Below, piece by piece: positions 658-19,365 of a stretch of DNA of 64,000 nucleotides. The stretch is from an uncultured Thermoleophilia bacterium (lineage in GTDB: Bacteria; Actinomycetota; Thermoleophilia; Solirubrobacterales; CAVPYU01), in assembly GCA_963710065.1 (NCBI GenBank), contig CAVPYU010000009.1, forward strand, positions 127,065 to 191,064, in the 5' to 3' direction. Position 1 is the first letter of the stretch. Each line of letters begins with the position of its first letter. A program made the translations under genes and the position numbers. Under the pieces are notes generated by a model. The model saw nothing but the letters and a program-made list of their open reading frames with translations. It was not told the origin of the DNA and searched no databases.

Positions 658-2979
658 TCACACCGCCTCTTGGTAGAGGTATTTCTGGAAGCCCGTGAAG
701 ACTTTCCCGATTTCCTCGGGTTCACCGAGATCAGCCACGGCATCAGAAAAAGAGTCGTGGTACTTAATCCGTATCAATGCTCCCAGCTTGTTCTCGTCGA
801 GCTCCTCGACCCCAATGTTCACATAGTGCGACAAAACAAAGTCGAGGAAGACCTGTTGTCTGCTGTTGAAATGTGTGCTGATGGCTACCTTTGCCTTCAT
901 CGCACGTTGCTCGCGGGTGAGCGTTGGCAGCGCATAGGCTACGTTCGCGAGCACGTCGAAGAGATCGCTGTCTTCGGCATCGATGATTCTTCTCATCTCA
1001 ACCATCTGTTCTTTGCAGAACCCCTTTTCGGCAAGGCCTTGTAATAGCTTGGCACGGGTCTTTGGAACGCACCACAGTTCGCGAAGCTCTGCTTCATTTT
1101 TGAAGAACTGCGGCAACTCACCGAAGAGCAGTTCAAGGAACTGCTCTGAAGACATCGGCGTGCCGTCGGGGTGCCAAAAGCTGGTGGCCATCGTGTGTTG
1201 GATATTGCGAGCCCTACCATCGGCAAGCTTGACTTTGATCTTCGGCCTACGTGGCACTGGCTCGGGGTATTCGTTTGGGGGTTCAGGCGGTGCGGGGGTC
1301 TGAGGGCCTGCCGGAGGGTACGTTGGTTCGGGTTCAAGTGGCTCGCCATCCCACTCAGGATCGCTGAAGTGGTGGTGAGCATTTACAAAGTCGTAGATGG
1401 TGAAGTAGTTCTTGCCATCGTAGAGCCGTGTTCCGCGTCCAATGATCTGTTTGAACTCAATCATCGAGTTAATCGGGCGCATTAGGACGATGTTGCGGAT
1501 GTTGCGTGCATCAACGCCCGTGGATAGTTTTTGCGAGGTAGTCAACACGGTAGGAATAGTTTTCTCGTTGTCCTGAAACTCCCGAAGGTATTGATCTCCA
1601 AGAGTGCCATCGTTGGCCGTGACGCGATGGCAGTAGTTCGAGTCCTTGCCTGTCTTCATCTGGTTGATCAGATCGCGCACAGCCAGGGCGTGATCTTGGG
1701 TTGCGCAAAACACCAACGTCTTCTCATTCTGGTTGATCTGCTCCATGAACAGTTTTACGCGATGTGCTTCACGCTCCTTGATCTCGATGATCTTGTTGAA
1801 ATCGGTTTCAGTGTAGAGCCTGCTGGTTTCGATCTCGCCCTCAATCAGCTGATCGTCAGGGGTGTAAACATACTCGTCGAGAGTCGTGGAAAACTGTTTG
1901 ACCTTGAACGGAGTCAGGAAGCCATCGTTAATGCCATCCTTGAGAGAATAGACATAAACGGGTTCGCCGAAATAGGTGTAGGTGTCGGCATTGTCTTGGC
2001 GTTTGGGCGTGGCGGTAAGGCCAAGCTGTACGGCCGGAGCGAAGTAGTCGAGAATGAAGCGCCAGTTGCTTTCATCGTTTGCACCACCGCGGTGGCATTC
2101 GTCGATGACGATGAAATCGAAAAAGTCGGGCGGGTATTGGCCAAAGTAGGGACTGGGCTCGCCCTCTTTAGGCGGGCCGCTCATGAAGGTTTGGAAGATG
2201 GTGAAAAACAGGCTGCCATTCTTAGGCACCCTGCCTTTGTTGCGGATGTCCTTAGGTTCGATGCGAATCATGGCATCTTCCGGGAACGGGGAAAAGGTGT
2301 TGAAAGCCTGGTTGGCGAGGATATTTCGGTCGGCAAGAAACAGAATGCGTGGGCGACGTGATGTCTCTCGGCTTAAGTTCCACCGGCTGTGGAAGAGTTT
2401 CCACGCTATCTGAAAAGCAATGAAGGTCTTTCCCGTTCCTGTAGCCAGAGTCAACAAGATCCGCTGCTTGTTCTCGGTGATGGCCTCCATTACGCGATCG
2501 ATAGCGATGTCCTGGTAGCACCGCGGGCCATATGTGCCACCCTTGTCCTCGAACGGCACAGCAGCGAAATGATCTCGCCAGTCGTTCGCTTCCTCGAACG
2601 CTATGTCCCAGAGTTCATCCGGCGTCTGATAGCACGGTAAGACGCTTTCCAAGCCGCTCTCCATATCGATGCCGTAGATGCCTTGCCCGTTAGTGGCGTA
2701 GGCAAAGCGGATACCCATCTTGTCGGCGTAGTTTTTAGCTTGGGCGACACCCTCGGTCAATTGTCTGTTCCAGGCTTTCGCCTCAACCACCGCCAACCTG
2801 TGATTGCGATAGATCAATACGTAGTCCGCGGTGAGCAGCTCACCGCGTTTGCCGTGGGCTTCGATCCGGCCAAGCGTGATCGGATATTCACGGCGAATCC
2901 TGCTGCCCTCGACGACGCCCCACCCTGCAGCCTTCAACGCGGGATCGATGTGCTCAGCTCTGGTCTCGGCTTCGTTCAT
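658..2979 (-). CDS. hsdR: type I restriction endonuclease subunit R
   Basis: 773-aa ORF. It has the typical HsdR opening MNEAETRAEHIDPALKAAGW, helicase motif I ATGTGKT, DEAH-type box VIDECHR, LGLTATP and motif VI QIIGRGTR. It is the last gene of an hsdM-hsdS-hsdR row. Confidence 0.93.
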   Translation of the reverse strand: MNEAETRAEHIDPALKAAGWGVVEGSRIRREYPITLGRIEAHGKRGELLTADYVLIYRNHRLAVVEAKAWNRQLTEGVAQAKNYADKMGIRFAYATNGQGIYGIDMESGLESVLPCYQTPDELWDIAFEEANDWRDHFAAVPFEDKGGTYGPRCYQDIAIDRVMEAITENKQRILLTLATGTGKTFIAFQIAWKLFHSRWNLSRETSRRPRILFLADRNILANQAFNTFSPFPEDAMIRIEPKDIRNKGRVPKNGSLFFTIFQTFMSGPPKEGEPSPYFGQYPPDFFDFIVIDECHRGGANDESNWRFILDYFAPAVQLGLTATPKRQDNADTYTYFGEPVYVYSLKDGINDGFLTPFKVKQFSTTLDEYVYTPDDQLIEGEIETSRLYTETDFNKIIEIKEREAHRVKLFMEQINQNEKTLVFCATQDHALAVRDLINQMKTGKDSNYCHRVTANDGTLGDQYLREFQDNEKTIPTVLTTSQKLSTGVDARNIRNIVLMRPINSMIEFKQIIGRGTRLYDGKNYFTIYDFVNAHHHFSDPEWDGEPLEPEPTYPPAGPQTPAPPEPPNEYPEPVPRRPKIKVKLADGRARNIQHTMATSFWHPDGTPMSSEQFLELLFGELPQFFKNEAELRELWCVPKTRAKLLQGLAEKGFCKEQMVEMRRIIDAEDSDLFDVLANVAYALPTLTREQRAMKAKVAISTHFNSRQQVFLDFVLSHYVNIGVEELDENKLGALIRIKYHDSFSDAVADLGEPEEIGKVFTGFQKYLYQEAV

Positions 2980-2988
2980 TTTCCCCTT

Positions 2989-4218
2989 CTAGAGCCGTCC
3001 CGCGAAGGCCTGGGCCAAGAGCGACTCTTTCAATGCATCCAGCGCGGCGATCTTACTCATATTGAGGGATTCAAGACGCAGTGTCTCAGTGCGATAGGAG
3101 TCCAGCCTGGTGACGATGGCTTCCTGTTCTTCCATGGCCTCGGGGTATCTAATGTCGAAGTTTTCGATCTGTGCCTTGGTGATTGCCTGCCTCGTTGAAC
3201 CGCCTTCTTCGCTCGTGCGCAGCAATCGGTCCTTGTACGGTTTCGAGATCAGAAGGTAATGCAGAAAACCGGGGTCCAACCTTCGGACAATTGGTCTAAT
3301 AATCGCAACGTGCTGATTGACCCGGGCGGGCAGCACATCTTGTGGGACGACACAACAGCGAGCCACTGAGGCGCCAGTAATGTTGAGTAGAACGTCGTCG
3401 CACTGTACTTCAACGTTCCTCAAATCGTTGGCTTGTTGCTCGCTGAGGAAGGCGAGTTTGGGATACTGGAAGCCCGGATCGTGAACGTTCAAACTTCGAA
3501 TTAGTGAGATTCCTTCCGATTTGTAGGACTTTTTTCCGCCGCGCGGGGTCGCGCCGCTGCCGATCTTTGTAGTCAGAGGCTTCAGCTCGCTCTCAACCCA
3601 CCCCTCTCTGCGCTCACTGAATACAGACTGAAGATGGCTATCGAAGAGGGCACGTGCATTTTGGAGGTTCTTTTCGGCGTTGGCTTTGGCGGTGGCGATG
3701 CCCTCAAACGCTTCGTCGAGGATGCCGACGATCTGTTGCTGTTCTGCAAGCGGAGGGACCGGGATTGGGTAGCGTTCGATGAACTCTTTTGCAACACGCT
3801 TGTGCCCAACAGCGCCCGACATACGCGCTGCGCCTTCTTTCCGGAAGGCCTCACGAGATAGGTAGTAGTAAAGCCATTCATCGCGGAGAGTCTCGTCGGC
3901 GCGCAGCACGATGTATTCGCTGGACCCGAAACCGATCCCATTTGTCAGTCCTTGCGCTATCCCAAGCTTTCCGTTTTCGAAACAGGGCGTGATCTTGGCG
4001 AGTAAGACATCGCGTTCCGTAAAATAGGTGTAATTCCCGGCGACTGTGGAGAGAGGTTTCGCGTGATTCGCTCGCACAAACTTTTCGTCAATGCCCATAT
4101 CCTCCATCGGCAGAAAGGAAACCAACTCATCGCCGGAGACCTTGTCGCGAGCTTCGCTTTTCGGCGGCTTGATCTGGCATGCTTCACCCAGTGTCTTCAA
4201 CGGCCACGCTGTCTTCAT
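2989..4218 (-). CDS. hsdS: type I restriction-modification specificity subunit
   Basis: 409-aa ORF with two variable halves. Each half is followed by a conserved helical spacer (PPLAEQQQIVGILDEAFEGI... and EEQEAIVTRLDSYRTE...). There is a 4-nt overlap with the hsdM stop. Confidence 0.9.
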   Translation of the reverse strand: MKTAWPLKTLGEACQIKPPKSEARDKVSGDELVSFLPMEDMGIDEKFVRANHAKPLSTVAGNYTYFTERDVLLAKITPCFENGKLGIAQGLTNGIGFGSSEYIVLRADETLRDEWLYYYLSREAFRKEGAARMSGAVGHKRVAKEFIERYPIPVPPLAEQQQIVGILDEAFEGIATAKANAEKNLQNARALFDSHLQSVFSERREGWVESELKPLTTKIGSGATPRGGKKSYKSEGISLIRSLNVHDPGFQYPKLAFLSEQQANDLRNVEVQCDDVLLNITGASVARCCVVPQDVLPARVNQHVAIIRPIVRRLDPGFLHYLLISKPYKDRLLRTSEEGGSTRQAITKAQIENFDIRYPEAMEEQEAIVTRLDSYRTETLRLESLNMSKIAALDALKESLLAQAFAGRL

Positions 4219-5669
4219 AGAAGATCCTTGATGCCCTCCATCACCTTCGCACTCTCCGCATCCAGAGCGGCGATCTCCTTCATGATCTCCTCCGGACTAC
4301 GGTGCGAGATTTCCTCAGCATTGTTTGGATTTTTAACCGAGAGGTCATAGGTAGTCTGGTCGATGGTATTGACATTGACACTCCAGGACTTCGGTGAATT
4401 GGCGAAGGTCTTCTGCAGCTGGACGAAATCGGCCAGGTCGGCGTCGTTGAGCGGGTTGGTCTTGCCGAGGTTGCGGCCGGGATTGAGCTGGTAGAACCAG
4501 ATCTTGCGCGTGGGCGCACCTTTGTCAAAGAATAGAACCACGGTCTTGACGCCCGCGCCCTGAAACGTGCCGCCAGGGCAGTCGAGTACTGTGTGCAAGT
4601 TGCAGCTTTCAAGCAGCATCGTGCGCAGACTCACTGAGGCGTTGTCGGTATTGGAGAGAAAGGTGTTTTTTATAACGACGCCGCCGCGCCCACCGGCCTT
4701 GATCATCTTGATGAAGTGCTGAAGGAACAGGAAGGCCGTCTCGCCAGTACGTATTGGGAAGTTCTGCTGCACCTCCTTTCGCTCACTGCCACCGAAGGGC
4801 GGATTGGCCAGCACTACGTCATAGCGATCCCTTTCCTGTATGTCAGCGAGGTTCTCAGTCAGTGTGTTTGTATGGACGATGTTGGGCGCCTGGATGCCGT
4901 GCAGAATCATGTTCATGACACCGATGACGTAGGCGAGGGCCTTTTTCTCCTTGCCGTAGAAAGTGTCGGTCTGGAGCACATCAAGGTCTCTTGTTGTGAG
5001 CTTTCCTTGTGATTTTAGGTATTCGAAGGACTCGCAGAGGAAGCCCGCGGAGCCGACAGCGCCGTCGTAAATACTCTCGCCGATTATAGGCTGAACGACC
5101 TTAACGATCGCGCGGATCAGGGGCCGCGGTGTGTAGTACTCGCCCCCGTTGCGCCCCGCATTACCCATCTTGTTGATCTTCTGTTCGTACAAATCGGATA
5201 GCTCATGCTTTTCTTCTTGGGATCCGAAGCGCAACTCATCGACGTAATCGATGACATCCCGCAGGTTGTAGCCACTGGCTATCTTGTTTTTGAGTTCCGA
5301 AAATATCTGCCCGATCTTGTATTCGATCGTGTTAGACCCACTTGCCCTCTGGACAAATCCGCTTAAATATGGAAACAGTTTGTTATCTACAAAGTCGGTG
5401 AGGTCGTCGCCGGTTATTGCGGTGTTGTGATCGATCTCGCCATCCTTGTCTTTCGGCGCAGCCCAGCTCTCCCAGCGATAGGGCTCTTCGAGTATGTATA
5501 TGTACTGATTGCCTTTCAGCTCCGCTTCTATCGCTTTTTCCTGTTCCAGTTCGTCGAGATACTTCAGGAAGAGGATCCAAGAGGTCTGCTCGGTGTAATC
5601 AAGCTCGGTTGTGCAGCCAGCTTCGTTCCGGAGCACGTCATCGATGTTCTTGAAGGCTTGCTCAAACAT
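4215..5669 (-). CDS. hsdM: type I restriction-modification N6-adenine DNA methyltransferase subunit
   Basis: 484-aa ORF. N-terminus FKNIDDVLRNEAGCTTELDYTEQTSWILFLKYLDELE, SAM motif DGAVGSAGFL, catalytic motif VLANPPFGG. Confidence 0.93.
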   Translation of the reverse strand: MFEQAFKNIDDVLRNEAGCTTELDYTEQTSWILFLKYLDELEQEKAIEAELKGNQYIYILEEPYRWESWAAPKDKDGEIDHNTAITGDDLTDFVDNKLFPYLSGFVQRASGSNTIEYKIGQIFSELKNKIASGYNLRDVIDYVDELRFGSQEEKHELSDLYEQKINKMGNAGRNGGEYYTPRPLIRAIVKVVQPIIGESIYDGAVGSAGFLCESFEYLKSQGKLTTRDLDVLQTDTFYGKEKKALAYVIGVMNMILHGIQAPNIVHTNTLTENLADIQERDRYDVVLANPPFGGSERKEVQQNFPIRTGETAFLFLQHFIKMIKAGGRGGVVIKNTFLSNTDNASVSLRTMLLESCNLHTVLDCPGGTFQGAGVKTVVLFFDKGAPTRKIWFYQLNPGRNLGKTNPLNDADLADFVQLQKTFANSPKSWSVNVNTIDQTTYDLSVKNPNNAEEISHRSPEEIMKEIAALDAESAKVMEGIKDLL

Positions 5670-5901
5670 GGGCGTGAAGATCCGTGTGGATCATATTGGA
5701 ATGCCAGTCAAGTCGCATTGCGTGGCGCTTGAAGAACAGCAGCGTGAAGATGCAGCTCTTAAAGTCAGTCCGGTCGATAGGCCCACCGAGTATGTTGGCG
5801 AACTCCCAGAGATGGGCTTCGAGTTCGGAGGGACCCACTCGAGTGGAAGCAGCCTTGCCCGACGGTATTGACGACTTTGCCTTCGCAGCGCTGGGTGGCA
5901 T
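5662..5901 (-). pseudogene. vestigial N-terminal fragment of a second type I methylase (HsdM_N-like)
   Basis: The 79-aa ORF contains ELEAHLWEFANILGGPIDRTDFKSCIFTLLFFKR. This fits the conserved LW..A..LRG...(Y/F)K....L(L/F)F(L/F)KR opening of HsdM proteins. Similarity then stops. It overlaps the start of the intact hsdM by 8 nt. Confidence 0.5.
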
Positions 5902-5905
5902 TTGG

Positions 5906-8047
5906 TCAGTCCTCTCCGTTTATGTGCTCTTTAGACCCGCTCAGATCGGACGAGGCCAGATCAAGCAGCGCTTCACGAATAGCTTGCGAACTTTGCTCAA
6001 CTTCCTTGGCATAAGACTCTGCCTGCTCAATCTCTTGAAGCATATCCCAGAGCCGGTCGGCCGCCTCCAGCGGAATGACTGGGATCTCAAGCTCACGGAT
6101 GTTTACTCGTGCACGGGAGGCTGATCCCAAGGATGACATCTTTACAAAGCGTCGGTTGCGAGGACTTTGTAGGAATGCCGCTAGGACCTCGGGGCGTGCC
6201 CATTCTCCCTTAATGCGCAGCGCTTGTAGCGGCTGGGCTAGCACGTGTCCGCCCTCTTCATCCACCACCGCAATCTGCTCTCCACTCCCAGGCGACATGA
6301 TGATGTCGCCTGGCATGGTCAGAGTGGGCTTCGGCTTGATACCCGTCGCGGCTGCGTAGCACGGTTTGCTAGCGGTCTTGATCCCTTCACGGATATCTCG
6401 CGCGCGCAATATGCGTACACCTTTGCCGAGGCGGTGCTCAGACTTCACATGCACGCCCCGAATGACTTGCGCAAGATCGTCGGATACTAAATCTTCCACT
6501 CGAACCCATCTGGGTTCCCCAGTCGCAGTAAAGTGCTGCTGGTTCGGTGCCTTCGCTTTGCCCAAACGCCTACCGGCACGCTCAAATTGCTTGCTGGCTT
6601 CCGCAAGCCTCTGCCGCACTTGTTCGAGGGTCGCGGCATCGGGTTCCTCGTAGACCCAGCGTACAGGGGTGAGGTTTGTGTCTCGTCGCAGGAGTTCAAG
6701 CGTGGGTATTGCACGTGCGATCCTGTGACTTTCCTGCGGGATGGTACCTTGCTGCCGCCAACTCTCCAAGACGCTCGCTATTTCATCTGAGAGCTGTGCG
6801 TTCAGGGACACACGGTCCTCCCCGGTACTCGCATTTGCGTCAATGAAAAGGACTGATCCCGTGCCGGCTTTTGGTTGGCGCACTACCCATAGGGCAAGCG
6901 GAATAGAAGTGCTGGCAGCTATACCTGGCGGTAGGCTCACCACCGCTTCAACCGCTCCTTGGCGAACTAGTTCGCTACGTATCTCTGCCTCCTTGCCTCC
7001 GCGAAACAGAGTGCCAGCCGGGGATACAATATATCCAGAACCACCGGGCGCCAAGTGGTATATGACATGCTGAATCCAGGCGAAGTCGGTATTGGTCGCG
7101 GGGGGTGCGCCAAATTTCCACCTCGGATCAGTCATTGATTCTGCAGGCAATCTAAGTTTGACGCCGTAAGGCGGATCGCAGACCACCAGATCCGCGTGAA
7201 GTCGAGGAAACGCATCAGCGAGAAGGCTGTTGCCGCAGATCAGCTCGGCATCGATGTCGTGCACAAGCAGTCGCTGTCTTGCGATTCGCCACGCGTGCAG
7301 ATTGAGTTCCTGCCCCACGAGCGTCGGTTGCTTTCGTTGCTTTTTGGCGAATTCGAGCAAGATGCCGGCCCAGCCTGCGGCCGGATCAAATACCGTCCTT
7401 GCTTGGTCCCCAGCTAACGTCATGAGCAGCTGGGTCAATTGGGGACCACTTGTTGCTTCTGACCCCCTGTGGCCGGTGCCGTGACGCATTGTCAGCATTG
7501 TCAGAGCGAGCTCGAATATTTGAGAAATCTTGTCTTGCCTGGTCGCGAAGGTGAGATCAAGAAGTTTGCTTGCCGTCGCTGATTCGATTTCAACAATCGG
7601 TGTGAACACATTTATAAGGTTGGGATGGTGCCCCTCGATAGCGGCAACCAACCCGCGAACGTCGTCGAGCGCAGGGGCCTTCGTTGGAGTTTCGCGGAGC
7701 GAGTCCTGTTCTTGCGATCTCCAGAAGTAAGTTAGGGAAAGGCCTGAACAAACAATTTCTGCATGGAGCTCAAGTGGCACCTCGCTGCGCAGCAATTCGG
7801 CAGCAGTCCACAGCCTGAGCTGCTCGCCTAGCGGCTCTTGCTTCCGGTCATGTTCGGAGAGCCATTCTTGAACCTCGGCAAGATAAAATAGGTCTCTGCC
7901 TCCTTCGGTCTTCCGACTAGGGCTAGGGAAATCCTTGTGGCGACGCCGCCAATTGCTAACAGCCGAAGGCCTGACTCCGGCAAGATCGGCAATTTGTGAC
8001 ACGCTGATGTTTGGTTCCGTCTTCTGAGATTGCTTGTCAGGTGTCAT
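5906..8047 (-). CDS. HTH-fused N6-adenine DNA methyltransferase with C-terminal HsdS-like target-recognition domain
   Basis: 713-aa ORF. It has an N-terminal excisionase/MerR-like HTH (ISVSQIADLAGVRPSAVSNWRRRHKDFP), SAM motif I VFDPAAGWAGILLEF and motif IV VVCDPPYG. The C-terminal ~230 aa look like a single TRD plus a conserved helix (LEIPVIPLEAADRLWDMLQEIEQAE). Its start overlaps the stop of the upstream NYN gene (ATGA). Confidence 0.85.
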   Translation of the reverse strand: MTPDKQSQKTEPNISVSQIADLAGVRPSAVSNWRRRHKDFPSPSRKTEGGRDLFYLAEVQEWLSEHDRKQEPLGEQLRLWTAAELLRSEVPLELHAEIVCSGLSLTYFWRSQEQDSLRETPTKAPALDDVRGLVAAIEGHHPNLINVFTPIVEIESATASKLLDLTFATRQDKISQIFELALTMLTMRHGTGHRGSEATSGPQLTQLLMTLAGDQARTVFDPAAGWAGILLEFAKKQRKQPTLVGQELNLHAWRIARQRLLVHDIDAELICGNSLLADAFPRLHADLVVCDPPYGVKLRLPAESMTDPRWKFGAPPATNTDFAWIQHVIYHLAPGGSGYIVSPAGTLFRGGKEAEIRSELVRQGAVEAVVSLPPGIAASTSIPLALWVVRQPKAGTGSVLFIDANASTGEDRVSLNAQLSDEIASVLESWRQQGTIPQESHRIARAIPTLELLRRDTNLTPVRWVYEEPDAATLEQVRQRLAEASKQFERAGRRLGKAKAPNQQHFTATGEPRWVRVEDLVSDDLAQVIRGVHVKSEHRLGKGVRILRARDIREGIKTASKPCYAAATGIKPKPTLTMPGDIIMSPGSGEQIAVVDEEGGHVLAQPLQALRIKGEWARPEVLAAFLQSPRNRRFVKMSSLGSASRARVNIRELEIPVIPLEAADRLWDMLQEIEQAESYAKEVEQSSQAIREALLDLASSDLSGSKEHINGED

Positions 8048-8502
8048 GCCGCCTCTAAGCTACGAGGCGATACTACAGCAGGGATTTCGAGGTCGAGAAA
8101 ATTGATGTCTCGTACCGCCAACCGCAAACGCCTCGAAATCGATTCTCGTCGAGAGACAACTGATACCCCGCAGCCTGCAGCTTGCAGCTTTGCGCAGTGG
8201 ACCGAGAAGATACCGTCGCCGGAGCCAAGCACAACATGATCAAATCTGTTGGCGAGGTGCTCACGCTCGAGTACATCGATGAGCGCTATGTCGGCACCGT
8301 CCGGTCCTGATCCGACCAACCTGCGCGCAGTTCTGTCCCAGCCCATCCAGGTCGGAGGTGCGGCAAAGTGACTTGACGCGATTACTACTTGATCTTTTGG
8401 ACCAAGGTTCGCAACTTCCACGTAGCGCTGCTCGAGCCAAGCAACCTCCTGAATCGTAAATGCGGTTTTTCCCATGAGATTTTCAATATCGATGAGATGC
8501 AT
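8044..8502 (-). CDS. NYN/LabA-like (PIN-fold) nuclease-domain protein
   Basis: The ORF spans 8044..8592. The start is placed at ATG 8502, which has GAGGA 6 nt upstream. MHLIDIENL..., VVIASSH..., VVLGSGDGIFSVHCAKLQAAGCGVSVVS fit the NYN-domain strand/acidic-residue pattern. It is translationally coupled to the methyltransferase gene. Confidence 0.65.
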   Translation of the reverse strand: MHLIDIENLMGKTAFTIQEVAWLEQRYVEVANLGPKDQVVIASSHFAAPPTWMGWDRTARRLVGSGPDGADIALIDVLEREHLANRFDHVVLGSGDGIFSVHCAKLQAAGCGVSVVSRRESISRRLRLAVRDINFLDLEIPAVVSPRSLEAA

Positions 8503-8759
8503 GGTCCGTCCTCTGGACCTTAGTTCAGGGGGCGTCACGTGTAACGCCATCTGGTTTATGTGTGTATCTTTCATAGCCAGAGTGTGACACACTACTCAAC
8601 TAATGTCAAGTGTTAGCTAAGTTCACAGTAATTTTCCTTGTTATTAACAAACTTCGTTTCACCATACCAGTTGCCGCACAGTCCAGTCGTATCTGTTCCA
8701 GTGTTTTGCAGCTGATATCAAGCATTCAACAAGTGCGGTCGTCCTTGGCCTGGTTGTAT

Positions 8760-9430
8760 CCTCCACCTTTAGTAAGGGTTTCATATGTTGTTGATCGCGG
8801 TGGGGACCGCCATCACCGGCGGCCCCCCGCACAGATCCCAGCGTGCGCGTTTAATGCACTGGGCTCCAGCCTTGGATGCGAACGTCAAAGCGAGCGTCTG
8901 TGCTGCTAGTCGCACACGGTCAAGCGCACTTGACTTGACTCAAGCCAGCACTGAGTCCGGAGCGTTTTTTGCTTACCGTGTTTTCCTTGGCCGGTCCCCT
9001 TTCCTCCACTACCCCCTCTGCTGCTTGCGCGGCTTTGTTCGGTAGCTTCGCAGGTACTACGGAACCATCAGATTTCCCATGATCGTGCATCGAGGGCTTG
9101 CGGTCTTGGCCTTTCCCTCGCGGCCCGTCCTTACCATTATCAGGACGGGCGATCATGGGATCTCCCGGTTCTCGCGCATGGAGATCTCACGTGCTTGCTG
9201 TGGGTTCTTCGACCGCGCGGAGTTCGATGGCAGCTCGCATATAGCTCGGCCTTCGGTATTGCCTTCCGCCTGTCTTGAGGGCGTTGGCACTCCGGGTGTG
9301 GTCATTTCGCGGCTCTATAGCCTAAGCCTGCACGTACCTTTGTCAATGCTTCGCCGACGTCCTTGCGGACGCCAACGCGTGACTCAAGGCCACTGTGGGT
9401 TGCTACTCCTTCAATGTAGGGCACTTTCAT
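8760..9430 (-). mobile_element. group II intron 5' remnant (ribozyme domains I-III plus first ~60 codons of the intron ORF, no reverse transcriptase body, no domain V seen)
   Basis: The minus-strand ORF 8920..9156 gives HGKSDGSVVPAKLPNKAAQAAEGVVEERGPAKENT. After a frame change it gives LDRVRLAA. This is the leader I recall preceding many bacterial group II intron RT/maturases. The upstream ~270 nt are non-coding and GC-rich, with a GTGC... candidate 5' end near 9424. No RT motifs or domain V hairpin lie downstream. Confidence 0.45.
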
Positions 9431-9766
9431 CCCCTTCTCCATGCCGGTTTATCCCGGCGCTCCAAGACCTGACCCTTTAACTCTCCGTTCCCACGCTACC
9501 TATGCAGTAAAGAGTCTGTAATCCCGCCGCACAAGTGCATTGGCTCAATCTGGCGTTCGGAACTGACATTCGTCGAACACTCCCTTATTATGTAGCCAAG
9601 CGGCGTTCGAGCGATTGGATCGCGGAGACGCACGAGCTACAGTGGGTGTCTACACTCAGGTCATGATGAGCTGTGATTGTCAGAGAGCGCTTCCTGAGCA
9701 GACACTCGTTAGTGCCTGCCACAGGGAGGAAAATTCCAAGAATAACCCGAAAATAGCCACTATACG

Positions 9767-10459
9767 ATGACCGCAGTAGGAAGAAGATATAAGAACTACC
9801 CACAGACCCCGGAGTCCCTGGGCATCTACCCTGCGCATCGTGTCGGAGCTCTTGCTGGCGTCTCAGGATACACGATTGGTCAATGGGCGCGATATAGGTT
9901 CATCCGGCCCACCTACTACAAGGGACGACCAGCGCATCTATACACATTCAACGACATTGCTGAAGCTATCGTGGTCCACTGGCTGCTAAATAAGGAATTT
10001 ACCTATGAGCAGATTCACATGGCCATAAATCATGCGCGTGAGGAGTACCCTGAGTGGCCGTTGCTCAAGGCGCCGCTCGGAGTTGCGCAGCATGCTGACG
10101 ACGAAGGCGATCCTCGCGGAATAATTGCTCAGGAAACCAAGAGGGGCGTCTACATCGATGTGAGTCGCCCCGGTGATCAGATCACATTGAAGCCGCAGTT
10201 CTTTCATGACGTTGCGATTATGCTGCGGACGGGCGGATGGATTGCCAGTGAACTCAACCTCAAGCGGATAGAGGTGAACCCGGAGAAGTTAGGCGGAGCG
10301 CCGACTTTGAGGGGACATCGATGGCTGATCGAGAGCGTCGCGCAGATCGCAGCGGACAAGGAGGGATGCACAATCCTCGTCGATGACTACGGACTCGACA
10401 AGCGCGACCTGGACGAATCAATGAGCTGGGTCAAAGCGGCTACCGCTCTCGTTCACTAA
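9767..10459 (+). CDS. MerR-like HTH + DUF433 domain protein (antitoxin-like)
   Basis: 230-aa ORF. The C-terminal VNPEKLGGAPTLRGHRWLIESVAQ fits the DUF433 signature. The N-terminal YPAHRVGALAGVSGYTIGQWAR is HTH-like. Confidence 0.7.
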   Translation: MTAVGRRYKNYPQTPESLGIYPAHRVGALAGVSGYTIGQWARYRFIRPTYYKGRPAHLYTFNDIAEAIVVHWLLNKEFTYEQIHMAINHAREEYPEWPLLKAPLGVAQHADDEGDPRGIIAQETKRGVYIDVSRPGDQITLKPQFFHDVAIMLRTGGWIASELNLKRIEVNPEKLGGAPTLRGHRWLIESVAQIAADKEGCTILVDDYGLDKRDLDESMSWVKAATALVH

Positions 10460-10472
10460 ACGGTCTGGCGAC

Positions 10473-10886
10473 ATGCCGCTACTAGTTCTTGACGAACAGC
10501 TTGAGCGGAGTCAACTAGTTGATGCCCTTCGGGATCGCGGTATGGACGTCGCCACAGTAGGCGACTTCGGCGTGTCTGGCCGACCTGACGCCGATGTCGT
10601 CCGCAGCATCGATTCTGAGCGCAGAGGCCGTTGGATCCTCGTAACAATGGACCTGACCATCGTGGAGGATTACCCAGGGTTCGACTGGAGCCGGTACACG
10701 ATCGCTTGGATCCGTCCACACGAAGGTCTAAGTGGCGCGCAGGTTGAACAAGCGAAGGCTGAGATTCTTCATCGCCATGCTCACGCGATTCGCAAGATGG
10801 CTAATGGCGACCACCATACTTTCACGGTAGATCGCCACTCCAAATCCCCGCCGAGCTTGAGCTACATGACTCGCAAGCGGATCTAA
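10473..10886 (+). CDS. DUF5615 / Mut7-C-like PIN-fold protein (putative toxin partner of DUF433)
   Basis: 137-aa ORF starting 13 nt after the DUF433 gene. MPLLVLDEQL...DVATVGDFGVSGRPDADVV...WILVTMD resembles DUF5615 proteins, which usually pair with DUF433. Confidence 0.6.
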   Translation: MPLLVLDEQLERSQLVDALRDRGMDVATVGDFGVSGRPDADVVRSIDSERRGRWILVTMDLTIVEDYPGFDWSRYTIAWIRPHEGLSGAQVEQAKAEILHRHAHAIRKMANGDHHTFTVDRHSKSPPSLSYMTRKRI

Positions 10887-11932: not shown

Positions 11933-12701
11933 GTGCTGTCAGAATTCATACAACAATTGCGCAAAGAACGGGGCATGACCCAGGAGCACGTGGCGTCCCG
12001 GCTGGGCTTCTCTCGCCCTACTTACGTTCAGGTTGAGGCAGGGTCGCGCGATCTTACGATCCCCGAAGCATCAAAGTTGGCTGAGGTCTTAGGTATCTCC
12101 ATGGATAGCTTCCTGCGCGAGGAGCGTGAGCTTGACCCCGAGGTGATATTGGAGCCGGCCAGGCCAGAGCCCAGACACGATATCAGTATTCGTATCCCAG
12201 AGTATCGTGTGAACAAGTTAAAGCAGGTTCTGCTGTACGTGTTACAGAAGGTAGGCGCCAAGCCAAACGTAGGTGAGACAGTTATTTACAAGCTCCTTTA
12301 CTCCAGACATTTTGACTACTACGAAAAATACGAGGAGAGCTTGATGGGTGCAACATATCAAGAACCACCACGGCCCTACACCGGCCGGGTTTACTGAAGT
12401 TGTGGAGAAAATGAAAGCCGAGAATGAGTTGATTGAAGTAAAGGATCAGTACTTCCATTATCCACAGAAAAAGTATTTGCCCCGTGTGAATCCCGACCTT
12501 TCTGCGCTGACGGGCCGTGAACTGGAGCATATAGACGAAGTCCTGGCTCGCTTGGCCGATAAAAATGCAACCGAGATAAGTAAGTACTCCCACGGCGATA
12601 TCCCCTGGATCTCACAGAAGGCCGGCGAGAAGCTGAGTTACGAGAGTGTTTTGTATCGCGACGAAAAGTACTCCGTGCGTTCAGATGACGATCAGCTTTA
12701 G
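11933..12701 (+). pseudogene. XRE-HTH + Panacea (DUF4065, SocA/PanA-like) antitoxin, split by a frameshift near 12350-12360
   Basis: ORF 11933..12397 has an XRE HTH (LRKERGMTQEHVASRLGFSRPTYVQVEAG) and the start of a DUF4065-like domain (KLKQVLLYVLQKVG...IYKLLY). The domain continues in the +2 frame (ORF 12348..12701, IKNHHGPTPAGFTEVVEKM...). Confidence 0.6.
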
Positions 12702-13058: not shown

Positions 13059-13377
13059 CTCGCCGGCGCCGTCCTCGTCTTCCCACGCCTTGAGCAAACG
13101 CATCGTGTCCTCGGAGGTGCAGAGCTTGGCATAGGTGGCGGCCCGCCCGCCCATCGACTCAAGGAAGCGTCCCAGTCTCGCCGCCACAGCACGTTTGCGC
13201 TCGACCGGACCGACGTGAGCCACTTGCAAGGGAGCTGGTACCAGAGGAAGATCTGCAGCCGGTAGCGGCTGATCGCGACCGGCGCCTCAGGGTCCTCGCG
13301 GGGTGCGATCCACTCAAGCGCCCCCTCGACGTCGCGTGCCGCATCGAGATCATGCTCGCCCAGCTTGGCGAGAGCGT
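13059..13377 (-). pseudogene. duplicated fragment of the N-terminal region of the 469-aa gene at 16970-18379
   Basis: It is near-identical at the nucleotide level to 17996-18308, with a 5-nt insertion (CGGAC) that breaks the frame. The translated fragments are LAKLGEHDLDAARDVEGALEWIAPREDPEAPVAISRYRLQIFLWYQLPCKWLTSV. Confidence 0.8.
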
Positions 13378-13472: not shown

Positions 13473-13811
13473 TCAGGCGGTAACCCGCTTGCTCTGCCGC
13501 TTTGGCCCGCGCGGTGTGAACGAAATTGTCTCGTCGTTGAACTCGACATCCGCTCGCAGCCGTCCGCCCAACGCGGCTACGTAGCGTTGCAACGTCGAGA
13601 TGTTGAGGTCCTGAGCCCGCTTGATCGCCGACACCCGCTTCTGTGTTACTCCAAGGCGCTTCGCAAGCTCTGTCTGCGACAAACCCCGAGCCTTACGCAG
13701 CTCATACAGCCGGATGGCCCCGAGCAAAAGCGCCTTCTCGCGCTCGATATTTGCACGACGCTTCGGATCTGCAAGAGCCTCACGCTCAAGATCGCGGAAA
13801 TTCTTAGCCAT
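13473..13811 (-). CDS. XRE-family HTH protein (orphan HigA-type antitoxin-like)
   Basis: 112-aa ORF with LRKARGLSQTELAKRLGVTQKRVSAIKRAQDLNISTLQRYVAALG. Its start codon is 5 nt from the inverted-repeat tip at 13816, so any upstream partner gene has been replaced. Confidence 0.7.
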   Translation of the reverse strand: MAKNFRDLEREALADPKRRANIEREKALLLGAIRLYELRKARGLSQTELAKRLGVTQKRVSAIKRAQDLNISTLQRYVAALGGRLRADVEFNDETISFTPRGPKRQSKRVTA

Positions 13812-13815
13812 CTCA

Positions 13816-14045
13816 GGGGTCAGGTCCCAAACGGTGCGCTACATAGGTAGGTCCTATCAGATATTCCTGTGCGGGGCGCTCACTTTGAGTCTGCGACTAA
13901 CCGTCGAGTGGTGGCAACCGAGCGCTGAGGCCACCTGACGCATCGAATATCCGTACTCAATGTGTGCAACCTCGATCGCATCGTCACGAGTCCGTGCTTT
14001 GATCAGTTCATTCAAAGGCGGCCGACTACCTCGCAGCTGCCTCCC
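13816..14045 (+). mobile_element. Tn3-like terminal inverted repeat plus decayed resolvase/transposase-type C-terminal HTH (longest version of the miniature-element interior)
   Basis: It starts GGGGTCAGGTCCCAAACGGTGCGCTACATAGGTAGGTCC. The minus-strand frame reads outward to the IR: GSRPPLNELIKARTRDDAIEVAHIEYGYSMRQVASALGCHHSTVSRRLK. No right end is present. Confidence 0.6.
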
Positions 14046-15298: not shown

Positions 15299-15527
15299 GG
15301 TTCAGCCTGATGGAGGTTGGTCAAGCTGCCCGCGTGTACTCCGAAAACCTTACTTCAAGCCGCAGCGGATCTGGGCGCTCGCTTACCTGCCTTGGCTGGT
15401 TGATGGGGCTGCCGTCGAATCCCTGTAGGCCGGTTTTCAGCATCTGCCCATCGGACTGTTTGAGCAGCCGCCGGGAGATGTGAACGACTCCGCCAGGATC
15501 GATGCCGAGCAGGTTGGAATCGTCACC

Positions 15528-15795
15528 GGGGTCAGGTCCCAAACGGTGCGCTACATAGGTAGGTCCTATCAGATATTCCTGTGCGAGGCGATCTCTTTGA
15601 GTCTACGACTAACCGTCGAGTGGTGACAACCTAGCGCTGGGGCCAGTTGACACACCGAGTATCCGTACTCAATGTGTGCAACCTCTATAAGTCCTTACCT
15701 CGAGCGATTTCACCCCTGTTTAAAAGCAAAACCCAAGCAGCCCGGGTTTGAGCCCAGCCGAACAACTAACAACGCACCATTTTAAGCCTGACCCC
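15528..15795 (+). mobile_element. complete ~268-bp miniature inverted-repeat element (Tn3-derived TIME-like), copy 2
   Basis: The left end is GGGGTCAGGTCCCAAACGGTGCGCTAC. The right end is ...GCACCATTTTAAGCCTGACCCC (an imperfect inverse). The interior is homologous to 13854-13975 and to the copies at 19.1, 24.1 and 25.3 kb. Confidence 0.75.
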
Positions 15796-16969: not shown

Positions 16970-18379
16970 TCACATCGGCTTCGCCGGTGCCAGGGCTCGC
17001 GATCGGAGCGCCAGCCGCAACGCCTCGCGGCCCGCTCGCATCAGCGTCAGGTCGCGGCGGGTGAATCCGGTCTCGTGATCGTACTCATGATCGTAACGAA
17101 CTAGTCCGAGGGCGTCAGTTACCCTGATGAGCCCGGCGGCGGCGCCAGCGACGTCTTCCACCCAGGGCGGCTCTCCGTCAGTGTTCCAGCCATCGGCTAC
17201 GATCGCCGCGTGGACGGCCGCTTCCATCTCGTGCCGGTCGATGGTCTCGTGGCTGAGCAGTACCGCGGCGGCCAGTTCCTGAACCGTACCCTCGAAGCCG
17301 TCACCTGCAAGCAGATGGGGGGCGCCGGCGTGGAGCAGCGCCTCGGGATCGTGACGCAGTGTTTCGCCACGCCTGGTTAGGACAAGCTTGCGCCCGCTGC
17401 GCCGCAAGAGGCGCATCCGCCGAACCAGCTCGTGGACCTCGCAGAGCGCGATTACTTCGCCCTCGCGGTACGGCGGCCCGAAGAGGTCGGCGTTGCTCCA
17501 CCACTCCGGGAACCGCTCGACGGCTGCGCGGACAAGGGCACGGCTGAGCGCACCCGTTTGCGTCAGGGCGAGGCCCTCCGCGGCCACATCGAGCAGCCAG
17601 GTGAGCGGCTCCAGCGCCTCCCTATCCATCGCGGCCGCCCCTCCGGGCGACTCGGGCCCCCGCAACAGGGGCTCGACCTCCGCCACGATCGCCCGCCGCT
17701 CTTCGCTGCCTCGGCGGGCCCAGCTCTCCAGCCGCTCCTCGGCAATTATTTCGAGTGGGGTACGCGCGCCGAGCTCGGCGCTCGGCCGGCACAGGAGCGC
17801 GGAGACGAACTCTGCTTGGCGCCGCTTGAAGCCGCGCTCTTCGGGAACCAGACGCCCCGCCTCCACGGCCCGCTCGAGCTCCAGCGCAACCACGTTGCGC
17901 AGCCTTGCCTCCTCCAACCCCATCACCGAGCCCCACTTGATCGCATCGGTGTCCGGTGGCTCGATCCCCGAGGCTTCGAGGCTATCCCGCAGCAGCTCGC
18001 CGGCGCCGTCCTCGTCTTCCCACGCTTTGAGCAACCGCATCGTGTCCTCGGAGGTGCAGAGCTTGGCATAGGCGGCGGCCCGCCCGCCCATCGACTCAAG
18101 GAAGCGTCCCAGTCTCGCCGCCACAGCACGTTTGCGTTCGACCGACGTGAGCCACTTGCAAGGGAGCTGGTACCAGAGGAAGATCTGCAGCCGGTAGCGG
18201 CTGATCGCGACCGGCGCCTCAGGGTCCTCTCGGGGTGCGATCCACTCAAGCGCCCCCTCGACGTCGCGTGCCGCATCGAGATCATGCTCGCCCAGCTTGG
18301 CGAGAGCGTACCTGACGGTCTCCGGCGATAGTTCTATCGGCATGCGCACAGTCTGCCCGATCCGGTCACTCGTTGGCAA
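16970..18379 (-). CDS. hypothetical protein (469 aa), no recognisable domain
   Basis: Long ORF with coding-like composition. Its N-terminal ~105 codons are duplicated as a pseudogene at 13059-13377. The start may be the internal Met at codon 13. Confidence 0.65.
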   Translation of the reverse strand: MPTSDRIGQTVRMPIELSPETVRYALAKLGEHDLDAARDVEGALEWIAPREDPEAPVAISRYRLQIFLWYQLPCKWLTSVERKRAVAARLGRFLESMGGRAAAYAKLCTSEDTMRLLKAWEDEDGAGELLRDSLEASGIEPPDTDAIKWGSVMGLEEARLRNVVALELERAVEAGRLVPEERGFKRRQAEFVSALLCRPSAELGARTPLEIIAEERLESWARRGSEERRAIVAEVEPLLRGPESPGGAAAMDREALEPLTWLLDVAAEGLALTQTGALSRALVRAAVERFPEWWSNADLFGPPYREGEVIALCEVHELVRRMRLLRRSGRKLVLTRRGETLRHDPEALLHAGAPHLLAGDGFEGTVQELAAAVLLSHETIDRHEMEAAVHAAIVADGWNTDGEPPWVEDVAGAAAGLIRVTDALGLVRYDHEYDHETGFTRRDLTLMRAGREALRLALRSRALAPAKPM

Positions 18380-19069: not shown

Positions 19070-19365
19070 GGGGTCAGGTCCCAAACGGTGCGCTATATCT
19101 CAGGGGTCAGGTCCCAAACGGTGCGCTACTTAGGTAGGTCCTATCAGATATTCCTGTGCGGGGCGCTCACTTTGAGCCTGCGACTGACCGTCGAGTGGTG
19201 ACAACCGAGCGCAGCGGCCAGTTGGCACATCCAATATTCGTACTCAATGCAATCTCTGCAATTCCTTACCTCGAACGGTTTCACCCCGGTTCAAGGCAAA
19301 AACCAAGCAGCGCAAGCTTGAGACCGGCCGAAGAACTAACAACGCACCATTTCAGATCTGACCCC
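19070..19365 (+). mobile_element. miniature inverted-repeat element, copy 3 (both junctions tandemly duplicated)
   Basis: The left IR is present twice, 33 nt apart (GGGG at 19070 and 19103). The right end ...CACCATTTCAGATCTGACCCC is followed by a second GATCTGACCCCGATGA unit (to 19386). Confidence 0.75.

Follow-up and report, generated by a model that had tools for sequence, protein, structure and literature searches.

Type I restriction-modification (R-M) systems are among the commonest bacterial defences, and few of the accessory modules associated with them are understood, PrrC being the classic case. A stretch of 64,000 nucleotides (nt) from an uncultured Thermoleophilia bacterium (GenBank assembly GCA_963710065.1, contig CAVPYU010000009.1, positions 127,065 to 191,064; this whole stretch is referred to here as the window) raises the question of what is formed by two minus-strand genes located directly upstream of an hsdMSR set, one encoding an NYN nuclease-like protein and the other encoding a single polypeptide composed of a helix-turn-helix (HTH), an N6-adenine methylase, and one target-recognition domain (TRD). 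The original prediction for this locus had proposed a restriction or defence module, with an orphan methylase beside an unrelated RNase-like neighbour as the alternative. Comparisons across related loci indicate that the two genes represent a real, conserved, translationally coupled, and co-inherited unit of mobile and defence DNA in Actinomycetota, and we tentatively favour a reading in which the NYN protein is a nuclease of the PrrC or toxin-antitoxin kind that is held by the methylase protein and serves as a backup for type I restriction.

The gene pair and the type I genes downstream

A scan of one genome per species identified 80 NYN loci, nearly all in Actinomycetota; with plasmid and metagenome loci included, a total of 116 NYN loci were compared. 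An HTH-methylase gene was located beside the NYN gene in 69 of these loci (59 on the same strand and 10 divergent, the latter in Streptosporangiaceae) and was missing from the other 47, in agreement with the co-occurrence across genomes that the original prediction had expected of a module. Among the same-strand pairs, 32 of 59 overlap by 4 nt (ATGA or GTGA) and nine by 1 nt, with most others located within 12 nt of each other. The ATGA overlap predicted for the window was confirmed; here the methylase start and the NYN stop share positions 8044-8047, which join two minus-strand open reading frames (ORFs), 8044..8592 and 5906..8047. Pairwise identities of the NYN proteins correlate with those of the methylases (r = 0.78, a value that none of 999 Mantel permutations reached). 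The NYN-only loci include 28 that fall in one sequence cluster with another conserved neighbour, while nearly all other clusters are methylase-linked; by this clustering, NYN-only loci would be essentially one derived cluster. A metagenome scan seeded by the N-terminal 200 amino acids (aa) of the methylase returned 80 loci, approximately 32 of which had an NYN gene directly upstream.

The genes found around the module across loci include toxin-antitoxin genes, SIR2-HerA, serine recombinases, and relaxases, and plasmid carriers were found in Corynebacterium, Rhodococcus, Mycolicibacterium, and Dietzia. The defence context that had been proposed for the pair was thus recovered on plasmids, in islands, and in defence-rich DNA; no match indicating phage carriage of the module was found in INPHARED or IMG/VR. 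Methylase relatives that lack an NYN neighbour adjoin genes of pPIWI-RE islands (PD-(D/E)xK, DinG, and restriction endonuclease genes), Ser/Thr kinases, and SNF2 helicases, suggesting that one methylase family partners several different effector sets.

The original prediction had treated the type I genes as defence-island context. Their presence, including a vestigial hsdM, was confirmed by Pfam (Table 1) and their proximity stands, but they are more than mere neighbours, since the pair heads the same gene string and 28 of 37 same-strand pairs (those for which 2.5 kb or more were available downstream) continue into a second HsdM-type gene on the same strand within 3.5 kb. The genes of the string in the window are tightly packed, being separated by 4 or 9 nt or overlapping by 4 or 8 nt, and no terminator-like site was found on the minus strand between 5500 and 9000. 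Three plasmids, pDK2035-69 of Dietzia, pJCM12272 of Mycolicibacterium alvei, and pBL90 of Corynebacterium glutamicum, have the five genes annotated in the same order (NYN, HTH-methylase, hsdM, hsdS, hsdR). These arrangements point to one operon composed of the pair and the type I genes, with the pair at its head. Type I genes are missing from nine of the 37 same-strand pairs and from most divergent pairs, and Rhodococcus plasmids carry the pair without a type I set. Between Dietzia and Gordonia, identity is 65% for NYN and 67% for the methylase, as compared to 27% for the downstream HsdM and 21% for HsdS, showing that the type I cassette is exchangeable and that the pair has stayed while the cassette changed. 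In the window, residues 19-59 of the 79-aa fragment located between the pair and hsdM match residues 2-45 of the ~500-aa second methylases of related loci (BLASTP; L038, L033, L016, L147, and L002), and the present HsdM has no relative among the compared loci; the fragment is therefore the stump of a displaced hsdM, and the type I set has been replaced once in the window.

Several related loci deserve a separate description. The NYN-only clade (L008-L031, from Trebonia and relatives; e.g., L012 6898-7758) carries a conserved and mostly divergent neighbour of ~286 aa, in which no Pfam domain was found; nor was any similarity of this partner to the methylase found (hhalign probability 0.4%). NYN-less HTH-methylase-TRD loci beside the effectors named above are L094, L100, L103, L108, L121, L131, and L160; L120, L123, L130, and L150; and L145. 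The pPIWI-RE genes near such methylases score 3.7e-175 (PprPDDEXK), 5e-216 (PprDinG), and 3.6e-71 (PprRE), and the kinases are PD-T4-6 or mad6-like. The divergent Streptosporangiaceae pairs are located amid housekeeping genes, e.g., three large trehalose-synthesis/debranching-like genes (judged by eye). Plasmid pFiD188 of Rhodococcus fascians (L167, 6425-12230) has a distant NYN homologue flanked by a DNA cytosine methyltransferase gene on one side and by two DUF4407 genes on the other, an NYN-beside-methylase arrangement of a different kind. Another NYN ORF (L168, 7351-8001, in JBAIGP010000008.1) scores 1e-58 with the family profile yet is uncalled in the public genome, i.e., in at least this one genome the gene has been overlooked by annotation pipelines; the module at this locus has the same box and promoter as described below, follows an apparent tRNA gene (judged by eye), and faces a convergent gene for a 570-aa PLD-family protein.

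The two proteins, their constraint, and their predicted promoter

While the longest ORF of the NYN gene opens with a GTG at 8592, its product is most likely a 176-aa protein that starts with the ATG at 8574. This start is preferred because a conserved Arg precedes the ATG at 8502, because the conserved leaderless promoter described below stops 6 nt before 8574, and because the database gene call is also 176 aa. The size of ~150 aa given in the original prediction is thus likely too short; its description of a lone NYN/LabA-like domain held. The protein scores 30.2-30.3 bits against Pfam PF01936 (cutoff 24.2), with only the C-terminal half of the profile aligned; the Pfam search found no domain besides NYN, and PADLOC matched its generic NYN model PDLC01154 alone (1.8e-5). 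An AlphaFold2 (AF2) model based on an alignment of 53 homologues (predicted local distance difference test score, pLDDT, 93.6) had 2QIP (LabA-like) and the MARF1 NYN structures 5YAA and 6FDL as its top Foldseek matches in the PDB (probability 1.00), with template-modelling (TM) scores ranging from 0.54 to 0.66 for the top matches and best values of 0.63-0.66 against 2QIP and mouse and human MARF1 NYN; a profile built from the NYN family also matched 2QIP (E = 1.1e-4). In a library reduced to representatives at 50% identity, 633 clusters belong to the family at E <= 1e-30, and the best 150 family members are 124-273 aa long, each matching most of the profile in one stretch. In the numbering of a 152-aa form, D5, E7, N8, D71, S94, and D96 are retained in 109-110 of 111 NYN sequences and D68 is retained in 94 of 111, so that, at these positions, the loss of catalytic acidic residues that would have spoken against a nuclease was not seen.

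The three parts proposed for the downstream protein were all recovered (Table 1). The HTH scored below threshold against Pfam HTH_17 (17.3 vs. 27), matched the PADLOC mad1 model at 5e-6, appears as a winged HTH at aa 13-65 in the AF2 model (pLDDT 90.3), and is the best-conserved block of the methylase family. Pfam HsdM_N did not match the 713-aa protein, while Foldseek alignments to HsdM chains span ~490 columns; HsdM subunits, among them PacII M1 and the Ocr-bound methylase of Vibrio vulnificus, are its closest structural neighbours, and the best PDB sequence match is PacII M1 (7VRU_A). A profile of the NYN-linked methylases mostly fails over the helical N-domain (aa 74-212) in methylases without NYN. 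PADLOC Specificity_I matches aa 489-696 at 6e-12, and in the model a beta-rich TRD is flanked by helices 471-497 and 660-708. Some relatives have a TRD-less methylase of 530 aa and a separate half-S gene encoding ~200 aa (Pfam Methylase_S 1.4e-11). Because motif I (FDPAAGWAG) and motif IV (DPPYG) are both canonical in the window, its methylase probably also lays its own N6-methyladenine (m6A) mark.

Across the family, the two enzymes present different degrees of conservation. Motif I is intact in 60 partner methylases, and motif IV has the canonical form (D/N)PP(Y/F/W) in only 26 of them. Motif IV starts with E or H in approximately 25 of the 60, including a stable EPPFG clade on Mycobacteriales plasmids, and lacks the aromatic residue in approximately 15 (EPPAG, DPPLG, EPPLG, EPTIG, DPPAA, and others), all accompanied by an intact NYN; four of these aromatic-less methylases are close relatives of the protein in the window. 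At face value, NYN catalysis would be essential to the module everywhere and methyl transfer by the partner would be dispensable. This unequal constraint is hard to square with a simple relation between a nuclease and its cognate methylase across the family; for members with DPPYG, such as that of the window, a nuclease/protective-methylase relation is possible. As for the proposed restriction or defence module, the conserved coupled unit is therefore upheld, and a methylation-gated NYN nuclease is not upheld family-wide. Hypervariability of the TRD was not found either; TRD identity in the few close pairs available is similar to that of other regions (0.92 vs. 0.89, and 0.54-0.78 vs. 0.64-0.78).

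Upstream of the NYN gene, many related loci have a TGTGA-N7-TCACA palindrome that abuts or overlaps a TTGACA -35 element, followed by a 16-18-nt spacer, a NANNNT -10 element, and an in-frame ATG or GTG 5-8 nt after the -10, which is a leaderless layout. With one mismatch allowed, the palindrome has a density of 0.02/kb across 1.79 Mb of loci, as compared to 1.35/kb (a 68-fold enrichment) when only the ~290 bp preceding the NYN gene of NYN+methylase loci are considered. All 11 exact copies in the 1.79 Mb are located upstream of NYN in such loci, and a copy is present in 26 of 67 NYN+methylase loci and in none of 43 NYN-only loci. The half-site TGTGAA/TTCACA occurs at 4.3/kb upstream of NYN+methylase operons (approximately 20-fold enriched), at 4.1/kb upstream of NYN-less HTH-methylases, and at 0.6/kb upstream of NYN-only genes; as it is enriched with or without NYN, the box follows the HTH-methylase and not NYN. 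Given that the boxes track the HTH-methylase, in which the HTH is the best-conserved part, these data suggest regulation of the operon by its own product, with the methylase HTH binding to the boxes; autoregulation through the promoter boxes is thus the likely role of the HTH, a role that the original prediction had not addressed. In the window, a corresponding layout is found (Table 1), from which the transcript is predicted to be leaderless, with the ATG at 8574 beginning 6 nt past the -10. A generic sigma-70 scan found no promoter at 8581-8609 (CACACT has 3/6 positions of TATAAT), so the promoter call is based on cross-locus comparison, and the single one-mismatch box of the window is not significant in the window alone.

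Two other identities of the box were considered. A CRP/GlxR site, which has the same half-sites, was set aside because the module carries its box along in different orders, because the box tracks the HTH-methylase, and because CRP sites are spaced by N6 and the module box by N7. A target of the methylase itself is less likely, given that the box is conserved while the TRDs are ~25% identical and the HTH is conserved. The divergent Streptosporangiaceae pairs (L040, L049, L029, L070, and L080) have another palindrome, GTCGATTCCATCAAC or GTTGATGGCGTCAAC, between the two genes, and NYN-only members L005, L018, L025, L047, and L056 have another palindromic promoter motif, CCATG...CATGG.

Table 1. 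Features of the NYN/HTH-methylase module and of the downstream type I genes in the window.
Feature	Position	Strand	Description and evidence
Promoter/operator region	8581..8627	minus	Sequence read; layout recurs in related loci
Box TGTGA-N7-TAACA	8611-8627	minus	One mismatch to TGTGA-N7-TCACA
-35 element TTGACA	8604-8609	minus	17-nt spacer to -10
-10 element CACACT	8581-8586	minus	Inside palindrome AGTGTGTCACACT at 8581-8593
NYN (LabA-like, PIN-fold) nuclease gene	8044..8574	minus	176 aa, single domain; PF01936, AF2/Foldseek, invariant residues
Putative NYN catalytic residues			D29, E31, N32, D92, D95, S118, D120 (176-aa numbering)
HTH-HsdM-like-half-HsdS methyltransferase gene	5906..8047	minus	713 aa
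N-terminal winged HTH, aa 11-66	7850..8017	minus	Motif IAxxAGVxPSAVSNWRRRxxDFPxP
Helical HsdM-N-like domain, aa 74-212	7412..7828	minus	LWxxxxxLR motif; AF2 model, conservation
N6-adenine methyltransferase domain, aa 218-465	6653..7396	minus	Pfam N6_Mtase 3.6e-51
One TRD between two long helices, aa 471-708 (half HsdS)	5924..6637	minus	PADLOC Specificity_I, AF2
hsdM remnant	5662..5901	minus	79 aa, N-terminal ~40 codons of an earlier hsdM; Pfam HsdM_N 4.6e-6
hsdM of the present type I system	4215..5669	minus	484 aa; HsdM_N + N6_Mtase; PADLOC MTase_I 7.7e-163
hsdS	2989..4218	minus	409 aa, two TRDs; Methylase_S; PADLOC Specificity_I 3.8e-90; 4-nt overlap with hsdM
hsdR	658..2979	minus	773 aa; Pfam ResIII, Helicase_C, EcoEI_R_C, weak HSDR_N

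Other elements were observed around these genes. Directly upstream of the NYN promoter is a group II intron remnant (8920-9560, minus strand), in which Rfam RF02005 (domains I-IV) matches 9203-9427 with 168.8 bits and the reverse-transcriptase ORF is reduced to 78 aa (8920-9156); the 3' part of the intron was not detected in this remnant. A toxin-antitoxin-type pair (DUF433/MerR-like and DUF5615/PIN_10) adjoins the module (window 9767-10886, plus strand; L083 7637-8712), and the five-gene cassette of M. alvei pJCM12272 likewise comes after a gene annotated as DUF433 and a hypothetical gene. At 11933-12701 (plus strand), an HTH_3 ORF (154 aa) and an ORF with a SocA/Panacea antitoxin domain (117 aa) overlap in different frames and look like one gene split by a frameshift. 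The window also contains a direct duplication (~320 nt, 13059-13377 vs. 17996-18309, 97-99% identical) of part of a 469-aa ORF at 16970-18379, and three copies of a 166-nt element (13811-13976, 15523-15688, and 19098-19263; 86-100% identical).

A proposed restrained nuclease and the alternative readings

In the favoured reading, in which the NYN nuclease is held by its partner, the operon would be transcribed from the leaderless promoter flanked by TGTGAA/TTCACA boxes, and binding of these boxes by the methylase's own HTH would result in autoregulation. NYN and methylase would be made in fixed proportion and form a complex, in which NYN, as the effector and most likely an RNase, would be restrained by the methylase protein and not by the methyl mark. 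When the methylase or the type I core is disabled, for example by a DNA-mimic anti-restriction protein or by loss of the element, NYN would be freed and the cell arrested; the module would thus act as a backup and stabiliser of type I restriction. We favour this reading because RNA cleavage is the known activity of the fold (MARF1), because methylase chemistry is relaxed in many relatives, because the operon layout is toxin-antitoxin-like with an exchangeable NYN partner, because the module joins different type I families generically, and because there are precedents in PrrC, PARIS, and Gabija and in the binding of type I cores by Ocr and ArdA. Characterised NYN domains are RNases, MARF1 being the case in point; PrrC is silenced by the type I system to which it belongs for as long as Stp has not disabled it, and PrrC, PARIS, and Gabija are precedents for the sensing of restriction inhibitors (bioRxiv 10.1101/2024.01.29.577857). 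The methylase cores of type I enzymes are bound by Ocr and ArdA (PMC9613975; 7EEW).

Several points weigh against this reading. The binding of the HTH to the boxes, the NYN-methylase complex, the RNA substrate, and the trigger are all inferred. The second Asp of the usual SGDxDF motif is absent (SGDGIF in this NYN vs. SGDGDF in 2QIP), and no defence against the phages tested was obtained with HEC-09, which is the nearest precedent (bioRxiv 10.1101/2024.01.29.577857). The gene order, with the nuclease first and its 713-aa partner second, is unlike that of classical type II toxin-antitoxin pairs, and a 713-aa protein with a TRD is a costly antitoxin. The divergent stand-alone Streptosporangiaceae pairs all keep NPPF, which fits a methylation-dependent link equally, and EPPFG may be catalytic, in which case the number of dead methylases is overestimated.

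If a guard or toxin reading is true, bacterial NYN domains would gain a function and restriction a new kind of backup. In a more specific version, which we regard as unlikely, the HTH-methylase-TRD protein would be a decoy or sentinel type I core, with catalysis optional, that frees the NYN RNase when Ocr/ArdA-like mimics or other insults hit type I cores; the module would then represent a portable guard ahead of interchangeable type I systems and the first NYN-based abortive-infection effector with a defined sensor.

Unlikely to a similar degree is a true restriction system, in which the methylase-TRD protein would mark its own sites and recruit NYN to unmethylated incoming DNA. The canonical motifs and the TRD of the window methylase are consistent with such a system, as is the tight gene coupling, which suggests a complex. 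NYN has no targeting domain of its own (as seen in the length and single-stretch profile match of the best 150 members), stand-alone pairs keep NPPF, and NYN-less HTH-methylases pair with other nucleases, including the pPIWI-RE PD-(D/E)xK protein. About one quarter of the partner methylases, however, lack the motif IV aromatic beside an intact NYN, a combination that would be lethal in a real R-M pair; in close relatives, the TRD has diverged no further than the other parts of the protein, and characterised NYN domains cut RNA. We know of no restriction enzyme with an NYN/PIN fold; a true restriction nuclease of this type would thus add a new fold to restriction enzymes.

The promoter boxes that track the HTH would also be expected if the pair were a control cassette, with the HTH-methylase acting like a C protein or an M.SsoII-type methylase and NYN trimming the polycistronic mRNA, which would delay hsdR expression or keep it low upon entry into a new host. 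On transmissible plasmids, the pair is found at the head of operons from several type I families, and LabA-type NYN proteins have been tied to regulation of gene expression (PMC5499597). This explanation is nevertheless quite unlikely, as the pair is also found without type I genes (the nine same-strand pairs and most divergent pairs described above) and a methylase fold with a TRD would be superfluous for a regulator.

That the HTH-methylase joins the downstream enzyme as an alternative M (or M+S) subunit, as in PacII M1/M2, with NYN as an accessory and a second specificity or mark as the result, is very unlikely. Support for such a role comes from the PDB sequence match to PacII M1, from the TRD-less 530-aa forms with a separate half-S gene, and from some relatives (L016, L033, and L147) that have three methylase genes in tandem, an arrangement resembling the extra methylase genes of non-canonical M1M2S type I systems (PMC9613975). 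However, one and the same pair is combined with different type I families, which argues against specific subunit contacts, and the pair again occurs without type I genes.

An orphan methylase beside an unrelated RNase-like gene, as implied by separate annotations in public records ('NYN domain-containing protein' and 'N-6 DNA methylase') and by the one NYN clade without a methylase, is hardly credible, being contradicted by the comparative data: in many genera the two genes stay adjacent, overlap at their stop and start codons, diverge in a correlated manner, and share a promoter that carries the module-specific box.

Comparison with known systems

The module represents a widespread two-gene accessory nuclease unit heading type I operons on actinobacterial plasmids and in islands, in which a nuclease fold with no established role in bacterial defence is paired with a methylase that often looks catalytically relaxed; its predicted operator and leaderless promoter provide experimental handles. 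No named system covering the NYN and HTH-methylase pair was found in PADLOC, NCBIfam, or the literature, consistent with the initial statement that this domain was not known as the effector of a described R-M type or named defence system. In classical R-M systems, the methylase is indispensable wherever the nuclease is kept, which by inference from motifs alone is not the case here; the nuclease has a known restriction fold, as compared to NYN/PIN here (among the folds known to us); and the specificity domain diversifies faster, which was not seen in the few close pairs available.

The type I cores (M2S1, half-S, M-S, and PacII M1M2S) resemble the module methylase in their HsdM-like fold, motifs I and IV, and TRD between long helices. 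The module differs in fusing M, half-S, and an N-terminal HTH, in being located beside NYN and not beside an hsdR of its own (the hsdR of the window belongs to the separate, exchangeable hsdMSR set), and in the degenerate motif IV of many relatives. C proteins and M.SsoII-like methylases with an N-terminal HTH are autoregulating controllers of R-M systems, found in type II systems. They are similar to the module in combining an HTH with palindromic boxes at or over their own promoter; in the module, however, the HTH, the binding of which is predicted, is fused to a type I-like M-S protein and the NYN gene comes first. VapBC pairs also combine a PIN-fold nuclease with a DNA-binding partner, a promoter operator, a plasmid or island location, and exchangeable partners, but in the module the nuclease gene is first and the partner is a 713-aa methylase instead of a small labile antitoxin.

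With respect to NYN proteins in the literature on type I R-M, HsdM, or abortive infection, we found only HEC-09 and general remarks, including one on PIN-like genes near type I subunits (PMC5499597). MADS (bioRxiv 10.1101/2023.03.30.534895) has weak to moderate profile matches here through mad1 (small HTH), mad2 (type I-like methylase), and mad5 (specificity). Membership was ruled out, as the mandatory mad6-8 are absent and type I models score far better; with regard to mad6, mad7, and mad8, no kinase, ATPase, or nuclease genes were found in the gene string of the window. HEC-09 (Payne et al., bioRxiv 10.1101/2024.01.29.577857) is similar in having a MARF1-like NYN with conserved aspartates in a methylase-containing defence operon. 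HEC-09 itself has an N-terminal HTH-like domain and sits in Hma, whereas in the module it is the methylase that carries the HTH, within a type I host system; the HEC-09 model of PADLOC was unmatched, which rules out membership.

PrrC/EcoprrI, like RloC, places an RNA-cutting effector at a type I operon as a proposed silent backup (bioRxiv 10.1101/2024.01.29.577857), and the location inside a type I operon that is typical of a PrrC-type guard is shared by 28 of the 37 same-strand pairs and by the pairs on the three plasmids. The PrrC architecture combines an ABC-ATPase with an anticodon nuclease, while here a bare NYN has an HTH-methylase-TRD partner; membership in PrrC/RloC was ruled out, as no PADLOC model matched and this architecture is absent. 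By profile and predicted fold, the module is thus assigned to the NYN family and to the HsdM/HsdS families; by analogy, it would act most like PrrC-EcoprrI or like a toxin-antitoxin pair of the PIN type, and would be controlled in a manner resembling the autoregulation of C proteins and HTH-methylases.

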